DNA of 64,000 nucleotides from an uncultured Candidatus Binatia bacterium (lineage in GTDB: Bacteria > Desulfobacterota > Binatia > HRBIN30). The notes beneath the pieces were generated by a model, which had not been told where the DNA came from, made no database searches, and saw nothing but the letters and a program-made list of their open reading frames with translations. The position numbers and the translations under genes are program-made. Below are positions 13,983 through 18,852 of the stretch, piece by piece. The stretch lies in the NCBI GenBank assembly GCA_964534275.1, contig CAZHQG010000001.1, positions 93,540-157,539 of the forward strand, in the 5' to 3' direction. Every line of letters starts with the position of its first letter. Within the stretch, counting starts at the first letter, position 1.

Positions 13983-16166
13983 TCAGGGAGCGATGGGGAC
14001 TACGATGCGTGGTGCGCCGTGGTTCAGTGCGGAGCGGAGGAATTCGATGCGCTGCTCGCGCGCCTCTCTGGCGTCCTGTGCGCAGTAATGTCCTTCGCTG
14101 CCAATGCTGGGATGCAAAGCAGCGCAGCCAGGTGTGGGTGGGACATCGGCGATTCCAGTCGGCACGAACTGGAAGAACCCAGCCGTGGTGAGCGGATCGA
14201 TGTTGCCCTGCAGCGGCCCGTCCACCGGAATCAGAAAGGGCACAGCCCGTTGCACCGGACGCAAATGAGGAAGGTCGAACAGCCAGGCGAGTGCTTCGGT
14301 TGCGTGGTTGGGCACGAGAGAGTCGTTGAGCCCTTCGGTCAAAAGCACGCTCGCCTTCTTGCGCGTTCCCGCCACCTCGAACGGCTCGCGATACACGAAG
14401 CGAGCATGATTGTGTTCGTCTTGACGATCGAACCCATGCTGGAACAGCGACATGGCAACCCAAACATCCGCGGGGGTCATGTTCGGAAAGACTTGGCCGA
14501 GAAGAAGCACGAAGTCGTCCGGCCGCTGGTGAATGAGTGTTTCCGTGAGGCGTGCCCCTCCCACCACCAAAGCCGCCGCGGCGATTTCGGGAGCGTAGGG
14601 CAACAACCCCGGCGCATAGTTTGCACCCTGACTGATGCCCACGTACGTGAGCGGCAACTGTGTGTCGAGTTCCGGAACGCCATCCGGAGCGCCCGCAGGC
14701 AGCAAATCCAGCGAACCGAGGCTTTGGAGCAGCCGGATAAAGGCGAGTTGTTCCGCATTGAGCTGCACCCAGTAGTCAGGAATCTTCCGATCTTGCACGA
14801 GGGCGAAGAAGACGGCTGTCACTTGCCGAGTGATGGCTTCTTCCGAGCTTGCTGCTCCGGCGCTCACTTCACGGTTCAAGTTGTCCGTAAAACCAGCCAC
14901 AGCAAAACCGGCCCCGGCCAAGTAATCGCGGGCCTCGATGGGCACTTCCCGCTCGGCGGTGCCAGGGTTGCCGTGCTGGTACATGGTGAGCGGAACAGGT
15001 CCCTGCAAACTTGCCTTTGGCAGGGCGAGTACGAACGGTACCCGGTTGGTTTTCACTTGCCGCGGTTTGCCGTCGGGCCCACGCGCAAAGTACAGCCCGT
15101 CGCGCCAGTCGGGCGCCTCCCACACTCCGCGAACGATTGCGGCAACCGGACTGTCAGGCGAGCGTTCCGGTGTGACCGAAACGATCTCGAAGGGCGGCGG
15201 TGGAGCGGCGAGCACTTGTTCCTTGATGGCGCGTAAGTCGGAAGCAACGCTTTCCATGCTTCGAACCGACAAGCGAACGGCGAGAACCGCCCCTGCGGCG
15301 GTGTTGGGCTCGCGAGTGGCAACCGCCGCCAGCACTTCACGGGATAACGCGCGCACTTTGCGCACCGCGTCGCTATCCGTGCCTTGTTCGGTGCCAAGCA
15401 CGCGCCGGAAGAATTGCGACGGACGAAACCGTTCACCGTTGGCGCCACGCAGGCGAGAACTTACTACGAACCCGTAGCGCCCCCCTGGGGTGAGCGAGAC
15501 GGAGGGAAAAATCAACAGCGAGTGGCTGCGAATCCCCAGCACGTTTTGTTCGTTTCTGACCAACACACGGAAGGGCACGCGCGCACCGAACGTCGGAGAG
15601 CCTGCGGTCAAATCGAACAAACCAATGCTTGCTTCGTGCGCGAGCGATTCCGCGGGCGTCAGGGGAAGAGAGCTGAGGTCGGGAGCATCGCTCAGCTCGA
15701 TCACGAAGTGGGCAATCGGGCTGAAACCATCGAGGCGGTTCACTTCGCGCAGCAAAATGCGAAAGATGCCGTTGACGTCGGCCGTAGCCACGGGCGGAGC
15801 GATGTCGAGGCGCACGCCCGTCGTCTGTTGGGGGTCGGCCACGAGCCAAAAGTCGTCAGGAAATGGATTCGTGCGACGACGGTCGTCCCGGTCGTAATAC
15901 ACGACCGGCCCGGGGCATCCTTCTAAGACGGCGCGCACCGCACGCACGACTTCGTCGATCGTGACATTCCCATTGCCATCGGCGTCGGCTGTTGGGCAGG
16001 CCGATCGTTGCTCTTCCTGCAGGAGGATTCGGACCGCCTGGACGACTTCGTCGATGGTGACTTCCCCATCCCCGTTGCAGTCGCCTGTGCACTGCCCCCG
16101 AGCCTGAATTCCAGACAAGGCCACCAAGGCCACAACTCCTAGCACCAGACCGCGCAGCCGCCTCAT
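13983..16166 (-). CDS. Secreted alpha/beta-hydrolase (lipase/esterase-like, GISQG nucleophile elbow) with an N-terminal dockerin-like double Ca-binding repeat. The start is Met281 of the track ORF (MRRLRGLVLGVVALVALSGIQA)
   Basis: GGAGG RBS before ATG ~16166. After the signal peptide come two dockerin-like repeats: CTGDCNGDGEVTIDEVVQAVRILL and CPTADADGNGNVTIDEVVRAVRAVLEGC. The GxSxG (YVGISQGANYA) motif sits in a ~600-aa C-terminal domain. The ORF-track extension to 17006 is antisense to the cytochrome gene and is rejected. Confidence 0.8.
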   Translation of the reverse strand: MRRLRGLVLGVVALVALSGIQARGQCTGDCNGDGEVTIDEVVQAVRILLQEEQRSACPTADADGNGNVTIDEVVRAVRAVLEGCPGPVVYYDRDDRRRTNPFPDDFWLVADPQQTTGVRLDIAPPVATADVNGIFRILLREVNRLDGFSPIAHFVIELSDAPDLSSLPLTPAESLAHEASIGLFDLTAGSPTFGARVPFRVLVRNEQNVLGIRSHSLLIFPSVSLTPGGRYGFVVSSRLRGANGERFRPSQFFRRVLGTEQGTDSDAVRKVRALSREVLAAVATREPNTAAGAVLAVRLSVRSMESVASDLRAIKEQVLAAPPPPFEIVSVTPERSPDSPVAAIVRGVWEAPDWRDGLYFARGPDGKPRQVKTNRVPFVLALPKASLQGPVPLTMYQHGNPGTAEREVPIEARDYLAGAGFAVAGFTDNLNREVSAGAASSEEAITRQVTAVFFALVQDRKIPDYWVQLNAEQLAFIRLLQSLGSLDLLPAGAPDGVPELDTQLPLTYVGISQGANYAPGLLPYAPEIAAAALVVGGARLTETLIHQRPDDFVLLLGQVFPNMTPADVWVAMSLFQHGFDRQDEHNHARFVYREPFEVAGTRKKASVLLTEGLNDSLVPNHATEALAWLFDLPHLRPVQRAVPFLIPVDGPLQGNIDPLTTAGFFQFVPTGIADVPPTPGCAALHPSIGSEGHYCAQDAREAREQRIEFLRSALNHGAPRIVVPIAP

Positions 16167-18852: not shown

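Follow-up and report, generated by a model that had tools for sequence, protein, structure and literature searches.

A dockerin-like module heads an OmcA/MtrC-family cytochrome and a predicted esterase in Candidatus Binatia and is a candidate non-covalent surface anchor

The 64-kb stretch of contig CAZHQG010000001.1 analyzed here (the window; 64,000 nucleotides from an uncultured Candidatus Binatia bacterium) carries two divergently transcribed genes whose products begin with the same small module. On the minus strand, positions 13983..16166 encode a predicted esterase of 727 residues with an N-terminal dockerin-like module, delimited by open reading frame (ORF) analysis and metagenome gene calls. 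On the plus strand, positions 16402..18852 encode an 816-residue decahaem c-type cytochrome of the OmcA/MtrC/UndA family, recognized by TIGR03507, PF22113 and its CxxCH motifs and likewise headed by a dockerin-like module. The 235-bp region between them (16167..16401) is the presumed site of both promoters. Gene starts and boundaries are identical in the gene calls on six independent metagenome contigs with the same locus, the module-bearing divergent pair is retained in five other assemblies, and for both proteins the nearest homologues carry the label Candidatus Binatia.

Each module begins one to three residues after the AxA-like end of a signal peptide. In the cytochrome, residues 1-29 (16402..16488, plus strand) form a signal peptidase I (SPase I)-type signal peptide without a lipobox, as read from the sequence and from comparison with lipobox-type homologues. 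It ends AVA|VC and leads directly into the module (residues 31-90; 16492..16671), which has Ca loops at 16501..16536 and 16597..16632 and Cys residues at 31/35/62/89. A 60-residue Pro/Thr-rich linker, delimited by inspection (16672..16851), connects the module to the cytochrome body. The esterase signal peptide, also assigned by inspection (residues 1-22; 16101..16166, minus strand), ends IQA with a presumptive exact cleavage site, and its module covers residues 26-84 (15915..16091), with Ca loops at 16047..16082 and 15951..15986 and Cys residues at 26/30/57/84. Homologues of the esterase also place the AxA site 1-3 residues ahead of the first Cys. The esterase module reads CTGDCNGDGEVTIDE...CPTADADGNGNVTIDE...EGCP and that of the cytochrome CPGDCNGDGRVDINE...CPAADVSGDGEVTVDE...EGCP. 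Both comprise about 60 residues with four Cys and two 12-residue loops of the form DxNGDGxVx(I/V)(D/N)E, at residues 34-45 and 66-77 of the cytochrome and 29-40 and 61-72 of the esterase, each followed by a helix-forming stretch. From the positions of the Cys residues, their spacing is therefore identical in the two modules, which share 60% identity over 60 residues without gaps (BLASTP E 5e-26). Loop positions 10-11 are I-D, I-N or V-D, and a regular expression for the loop, run over all six frames of the window, matched four times, always within these two modules. The Cys residues probably form two disulfides that staple the module.

A variant of the module is found in many homologues of the esterase (P0189, P0201, P0203, P0216-P0219, P0231 and others), where a Cys-rich stretch such as CPAFPACDVGPVCIADLIRAV replaces the second Ca loop. 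A disulfide appears to have taken over from the calcium site in these proteins, and the extra Cys pair fits a structural rather than a signalling role for calcium.

The preliminary description of this DNA had identified the minus-strand product as a hydrolase, the plus-strand product as a decahaem cytochrome, and a Cys-bracketed double Ca-binding repeat behind the signal peptide of each; all three assignments are borne out. The cytochrome contains ten CxxCH motifs and scores 371.1 bits against TIGR03507 (OmcA/MtrC; cut-off 209.3; E 1.1e-110), which places it in the OmcA/MtrC family, and it matches PF22113 at 1.2e-50. Its only sequence matches in the PDB are UndA (1.6e-12) and MtrC (1e-5), and it shares both family (TIGR03507, PF22113) and ten haems with MtrC, OmcA and UndA of Shewanella. 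Of these, MtrC and OmcA are lipoproteins anchored through a lipid at the N-terminus. The lipobox Cys usual in the family is missing from the cytochrome described here, which has an SPase I site and the dockerin-like module in its place. The AlphaFold 2 (AF2) model of the esterase is confident (predicted local distance difference test score, pLDDT, 93.3), and Foldseek matches its C-terminal half to CE7 acetyl-xylan esterases, CE15 glucuronoyl esterases and esterase D with a probability of 1.0 and target TM-scores of 0.5-0.6 for CE7 and CE15. The predicted alpha/beta-hydrolase fold holds a Ser-Asp-His triad with the Ser in a GxSxG elbow, and 60 homologues keep G510-S512-G514, D615, H693 and H398-G399 without exception. 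No Pfam family matched the esterase body. Owing to the confident model, the matches to CE7, CE15 and esterase D, and the invariant S512, D615 and H693, the minus-strand protein is a predicted secreted serine esterase.

The strongest comparative argument that the module may be a retention device is its alternation with a lipobox. Among the 120 best homologues of the cytochrome, the module is present in 27 and a lipobox (e.g., LAGCGGGG), together with the same kind of Pro/Thr linker, in at least 71; most of the others look lipobox-type to the eye or are truncated. The 120 homologues of the esterase include 86 with the module and at least 22 with a lipobox. No full-length homologue clearly lacking both elements was seen, with the few sequences that our rules left unassigned judged by eye. 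In two protein families that are unrelated to each other, the module thus stands where the lipid anchor would be. Since it alternates with a lipobox in homologues of both proteins, non-covalent surface anchoring is the best reading of its role.

The two modules belong to a large family. With the module as sole query, word-indexed homology searching yielded just four proteins. A profile built from six modules, searched exhaustively against 50%-identity cluster representatives, matched 12,590 clusters at E<=1e-3 and 7,676 at E<=1e-10. In the best 150 proteins, module copies lie at the N-terminus (69), at the C-terminus (79) and internally (75). A single protein may hold as many as six, and the passenger domains are numerous and unrelated. 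Judged from this sequence distribution, the family is mobile, as dockerins are.

A candidate binding partner came from the module-bearing proteins themselves, of which 98 among the best 150 were compared all-against-all with the module masked, followed by an iterative search. A domain of about 148 residues is common to 22 proteins, all among the best 150 module-bearing ones, and is often present in two or three copies. Single sequences of this domain match Pfam Cohesin (PF00963) below the cut-off. A profile of the 22 copies (A6) matches solved cohesins in the PDB, led by 5n5p_A (7.5e-12) and 6kgc_A (1e-7, positions 2-148 of 149); about 17 more cohesin-type chains, with 3ul4_A, 1g1k_A, 2vn5_A, 3kcp_A and 1aoh_A among them, are included in the 29 matches. 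The domain is homologous to solved cohesins, so that members of the module family share a polypeptide with divergent cohesins. A single cohesin sequence used as a local query gave no match.

As A6 was too diverse for a genome scan, cohesin loci were sought with a narrower profile (A7) and a single peptide pattern. The scan gave 14 loci in species-representative genomes, among them three labelled Candidatus Binatia, one from Bacterium HR30, two from "Deltaproteobacteria" metagenome-assembled genomes (MAGs) and one from a "Myxococcales" MAG, and 32 more in metagenomes. Because the pattern was a single one, these 46 loci are a small and biased sample, and absence of a hit from any one genome is uninformative. 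Cohesin and module are both present in 24 of the 46. In at least ten loci, one or two genes whose products end in the module stand directly upstream of a gene for a signal peptide, two cohesins (Coh-Coh), a Pro/Thr linker and a C-terminal tail of the form DDDGCAxVAP-TM-RRR, where TM is a transmembrane helix. One locus of Bacterium HR30 (L015; BEIG01000035.1, 2..5539) holds an ORF of at least 1846 residues with seven tandem cohesins, a scaffoldin-sized protein in a Gram-negative MAG, and the protein of another (L017) combines three cohesins with three modules.

The tripartite Cys/TM/Arg tail is visible in at least 15 loci, and other cohesin carriers have a lipobox (L013, L018). With such tails or lipoboxes, the cohesin carriers look like surface-anchored scaffolds. 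MYXO-CTERM is a Cys/TM/Arg signal that is processed by myxosortase for surface anchoring in Myxococcus (PMC11980579). The Coh-Coh proteins share the invariant Cys motif, TM helix and Arg-rich tail of this system, as known from Myxococcus xanthus TraA (PMC11980579), but their tails occur in Binatia-type MAGs, outside Myxococcota, and belong to the presumed partner and not to the window genes. Against the MYXO-CTERM model TIGR03901 (cut-off 20), the full-length L012 and L021 proteins score 22.7 and 19.2 bits and the tails alone 26-29, values to be read with the doubt attached to matches outside Myxococcota; as the curators of the model distrust such matches, we call the tails MYXO-CTERM-like. 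The surface scaffold envisaged earlier for the window proteins is therefore matched by anchored cohesin carriers in other Binatia-type genomes, with MYXO-CTERM-like tails or lipoboxes as anchors and not the S-layer homology (SLH) domains that had been expected.

Two further protein types recur among the cohesin loci. In L009, L011, L014 and L030, proteins of about 730-1000 residues combine a single module and a single cohesin behind a signal peptide and continue with a long C-terminal region; such adaptor-like proteins could connect one scaffold with another. Short single-cohesin proteins in L024, L025, L027, L028 and L051 end in a conserved Cys tail, ...SK(D/A/S)QCK(H/K/N)GGW(R/Q)NFT.PR.FKNQGDCIQFVNTGK, a C-terminal domain different from the Cys/TM/Arg tail.

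The predicted structure of the module bears on its class. In the AF2 model, helices are found only at 19-29 and 51-63, both after loops, so that two tandem units of a 12-residue Ca loop and a helix, with no entering helix, fill about 60-70 residues in the layout of a dockerin. The predicted fold superposes on solved dockerins and lacks the entering helix of the helix-loop-helix in EF-hand proteins; the module is predicted to be a dockerin in fold and not an EF-hand pair. In the wider family, a Dockerin_1 match (E<=1e-3) is found in 21 of 98 members and an EF-hand match in 70. Type I dockerins (PF00404; C. thermocellum Xyn10B, 2CCL; C. cellulolyticum, 2VN5) resemble the modules in their length of about 60 residues, their two Ca loop-helix (F-hand) repeats and, by prediction, their fold; they are likewise mobile on secreted enzymes and co-occur with surface-anchored cohesin scaffold proteins. 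The modules differ in scoring below the Pfam threshold, in Glu at loop position 12, in four invariant Cys and in their frequent N-terminal placement, right after the signal peptide, and for these reasons we file them as a distinct dockerin-like subfamily and not as members of PF00404. In contrast to cellulosomal dockerins, the host here is a Gram-negative, non-cellulolytic lineage and the cargo includes a respiratory cytochrome; cellulosomal scaffolds use SLH or sortase anchors, unlike the cohesin scaffolds described above. With canonical EF-hand pairs (calmodulin-like; PF00036, PF13499), the modules share the 12-residue DxNxDG...E loop.

Taken together, we consider it probable that the cytochrome and the esterase are anchored non-covalently on surface cohesin scaffolds through the dockerin-like module, in the manner of a cellulosome. 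Both proteins would be exported by Sec over the inner membrane and cleaved by SPase I; haem attachment, Ca2+ loading and disulfide formation would follow in the periplasm, and then outer-membrane export. The module would dock non-covalently onto a cohesin of a scaffold that is itself fixed by a lipobox or a MYXO-CTERM-like Cys/TM/Arg tail, and so would do the job of the N-terminal lipid of most homologues, including Shewanella MtrC and OmcA. Cytochrome and esterase could be displayed on one scaffold. Within this scheme, we infer cohesin binding, the cell-surface location, the disulfide pairing and a cohesin in this genome.

Two assemblies bring the module-bearing homologues of the window proteins together with cohesins. 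In the first (GCA_037445065.1), contig JBBILD010000007.1 carries an MtrC orthologue of the module type (P0010; 70% identity) that has kept both the divergent esterase and the downstream gene, and contig JBBILD010000011.1 carries a cohesin locus (L019). A module-type esterase (P0137) is encoded on JACQEN010000277.1, and the locus with three cohesins and three modules (L017) is on JACQEN010000287.1, again of the same assembly. The JGI sample that holds the sequence of the window has a prefix found on none of the listed cohesin metagenome contig names, and no Cys/TM/Arg tail was found in the window.

Several results weigh against cohesin-based anchoring. Neither the 64-kb window nor the flanks of the related loci L001 and L002 encode a cohesin, and both assemblies just mentioned are MAGs, so a binning error is possible. 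The suspicion of the MYXO-CTERM curators toward matches outside Myxococcota touches the proposed scaffold anchors. The modules fail the Pfam Dockerin_1 test (PF00404; esterase 14.7 bits, cytochrome 17.9, cut-off 22.9), and for EF-hand_1 (cut-off 25.4) the esterase module passes with 25.8 bits and the cytochrome module falls below with 19.3. Single-sequence and profile searches of the PDB return calmodulin-type proteins first, with dockerins at E of about 0.1 or absent. The clostridial consensus of type I dockerins closes the 12-residue loop with Asp, preceded by the Ser/Thr recognition pair at positions 10-11; all four loops here have Glu at position 12, as in EF-hands, and the Ser/Thr pair is absent. 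The fold evidence is a predicted model from AlphaFold, the training of which included dockerin structures. The type I dockerin label of the preliminary description thus stands for the predicted fold and the loop-helix layout and falls on the Pfam Dockerin_1 score, with EF-hand models scoring better. Its proposal of cohesin-type surface anchoring draws support from the fold, the mobility of the module, its joining and adjacency to cohesins, the same-assembly loci and the lipobox swap, and lacks a cohesin in the window itself.

Three alternatives were considered, all of which rank lower. The one that survives best, though unlikely, is that the module is an extracellular adhesion or stability domain, stabilized by Ca2+ and disulfides and independent of cohesins, which co-occur with only a subset of the family; its acidic loops might bind exopolysaccharide, lipopolysaccharide or mineral surfaces, or the module may merely shield the N-terminus. 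A cohesin accompanies only about 15-25% of the sampled module-bearing proteins and none is near the window genes, but cellulosomal dockerin enzymes also stand without cohesins of their own, so that a low percentage is expected of a docking system. Dockerin-like modules of unknown function are reported from many bacteria (PMC9012536 and PMC5244752, citing Peer et al. 2009), and the extra Cys pair in place of the second Ca loop would suit a structural domain. Adjacency of module genes to Coh-Coh-anchor genes in at least ten loci, and alternation with a lipid anchor, argue instead for a specific tether.

Considerably less credible is a module that serves as an export or sorting signal, read by type II secretion or a sortase-like machine, and is not itself the anchor. 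Most of the proteins do carry it at the extreme N- or C-terminus, and it replaces a lipobox, which is another sorting element. The module also occurs internally, however, and in up to six tandem copies, and it is a folded Ca-binding domain of 60 residues, not a short tripartite signal. In PEP-CTERM, GlyGly-CTERM and MYXO-CTERM, a TM helix and a basic tail form the end of the protein, and the module has neither (PMC11980579); the search for GlyGly-CTERM/PEP-CTERM-like signals that had been suggested for these proteins came back empty, with no NCBIfam sorting-signal model matching the window proteins. Least probable of all is a canonical EF-hand pair that acts as a calcium sensor and regulates the enzyme or cytochrome behind it in activity or conformation, a role in keeping with the best sequence matches, to EF-hand models and calmodulin-type proteins, and with the full DxNxDGxxxxxE ligand pattern of the loops, but not with the predicted fold.

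Non-covalent anchoring on cohesin scaffolds has a precedent as a proposal. Cohesin and dockerin domains are likewise reported from anaerobic methane-oxidizing (ANME) archaea and their sulfate-reducing partners, which are not cellulose degraders but carry out extracellular electron transfer; there they occur on transporter-binding proteins, S-layer proteins and adhesins, and attachment of multihaem cytochromes by cohesin and dockerin has been put forward as a hypothesis for these consortia (PMC5244752, PMC9012536, PMC10553843). The accessible parts of those reports describe no fusion of a dockerin to an MtrC-family cytochrome, whereas the fusion here is direct and conserved. Our literature searches on Binatia with dockerin, and on MYXO-CTERM with cohesin or dockerin, found nothing relevant.

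More tentatively, and as a possibility that we hold with less than balanced confidence, Binatia and related uncultured Gram-negative bacteria may possess a widespread, undescribed cohesin-dockerin display system, with Cys-stapled EF-hand-like dockerins, Cys-containing cohesins and MYXO-CTERM-like or lipobox scaffolds. One clade would have moved its terminal MtrC-type metal-reducing or metal-oxidizing cytochrome from its lipid onto this scaffold, giving a modular "electro-cellulosome" on which redox proteins and hydrolases are displayed together and can be exchanged. Outer-surface multihaem cytochromes are the point of contact between the cell and minerals, electrodes or partner cells, and are lipid-held in model organisms; scaffolded electron transfer has so far been only hypothesized, for methane-oxidizing consortia, and engineered synthetically. 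If the hypothesis holds, a plug-in protein anchor on a natural MtrC-type cytochrome would show scaffold assembly of extracellular electron-transfer components, cohesin-dockerin assembly would reach into a large Gram-negative group from soil and the subsurface, a function could be assigned to thousands of proteins that now go by "EF-hand" or "hypothetical", and a new orthogonal cohesin-dockerin pair would be at hand. The hypothesis is directly testable with two small recombinant domains.

The cytochrome gene is the first of a porin-cytochrome-type extracellular electron-transfer operon, which is collinear with that of the Binatia MAG L001 (GCA_026415395.1). Directly 3' of it, a gene at 18955..20292 (plus strand) encodes a protein of 445 residues with no Pfam or PDB match, conserved beside MtrC homologues in L001, L002, L055-L058 and L060; we take it for a putative outer-membrane porin-like partner. 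The remainder of the operon (20232..25090, plus strand), assigned from CxxCH counts and Pfam, encodes a 7-haem cytochrome of uncertain start (ends 20948), a 2-haem lipoprotein cytochrome with lipobox LALAGCG (20945..21253), a 4-haem cytochrome (21250..21822), an 18-haem lipoprotein cytochrome with lipobox GAAAGCG (21819..23591) and a 6-haem NapC/NirT-type cytochrome (23588..25090). With classical lipoboxes on the 2- and 18-haem cytochromes and the module on the MtrC-type protein, both anchoring styles are therefore present in one operon. Shewanella MtrC operons are alike in that the MtrC-type gene comes first and is accompanied by further multihaem cytochromes and a NapC/NirT-type quinol dehydrogenase. 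The operon here differs from them in that its 445-residue protein is not recognizable as MtrB and in having no MtrA-like decahaem gene placed as in Shewanella.

A module-bearing esterase homologue again lies between cytochrome genes in a locus of a more distant genome (L059; GCA_016200585.1, JACQEN010000277.1, 1..10223). Its neighbors there are a cytochrome c, a NapC/NirT protein, a multihaem protein with a cytochrome b domain and a tri-cytochrome c, with no adjacent MtrC. This placement may reflect a functional link between the esterase and clusters of respiratory cytochromes.

The intergenic spacer had been described as a low-GC divergent promoter region of 235 bp spanned by an inverted DNA repeat. 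Its length is correct. The guanine-cytosine (GC) content is 58% compared with 61.8% for the window, so that the spacer is only mildly GC-poor, and a promoter scan found no sigma-70-type consensus within the 235 bp. A Shine-Dalgarno-like motif, AGGGGGGACG, precedes the cytochrome start, and apart from this motif the spacer is poorly conserved in the relative L001. The inverted repeat was rejected as a separate feature: it amounts to 54 nt at 74% complementarity, plus a few arms of 17-22 nt, and arises from the shared protein sequence and codon bias. A 43-residue ORF (16274..16405, plus strand) overlaps the cytochrome start codon (ATGA). Four of the six assemblies listed include it among their gene calls, but L001 has not conserved it, and for that reason it is probably spurious.

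Directly beside the esterase gene, on its other side, positions 6834..13880 (plus strand) encode a 2348-residue RHS/YD-repeat toxin-like protein with SpvB, TcdB-middle, FG-GAP and RHS repeats, the length of which differs among metagenome assemblies (2274, 2323 and 2348 residues). Farther out, at 910..6488 (minus strand), a 1168-residue protein with many WD40 repeats is followed by a CheA-like histidine kinase (Hpt, HATPase_c).

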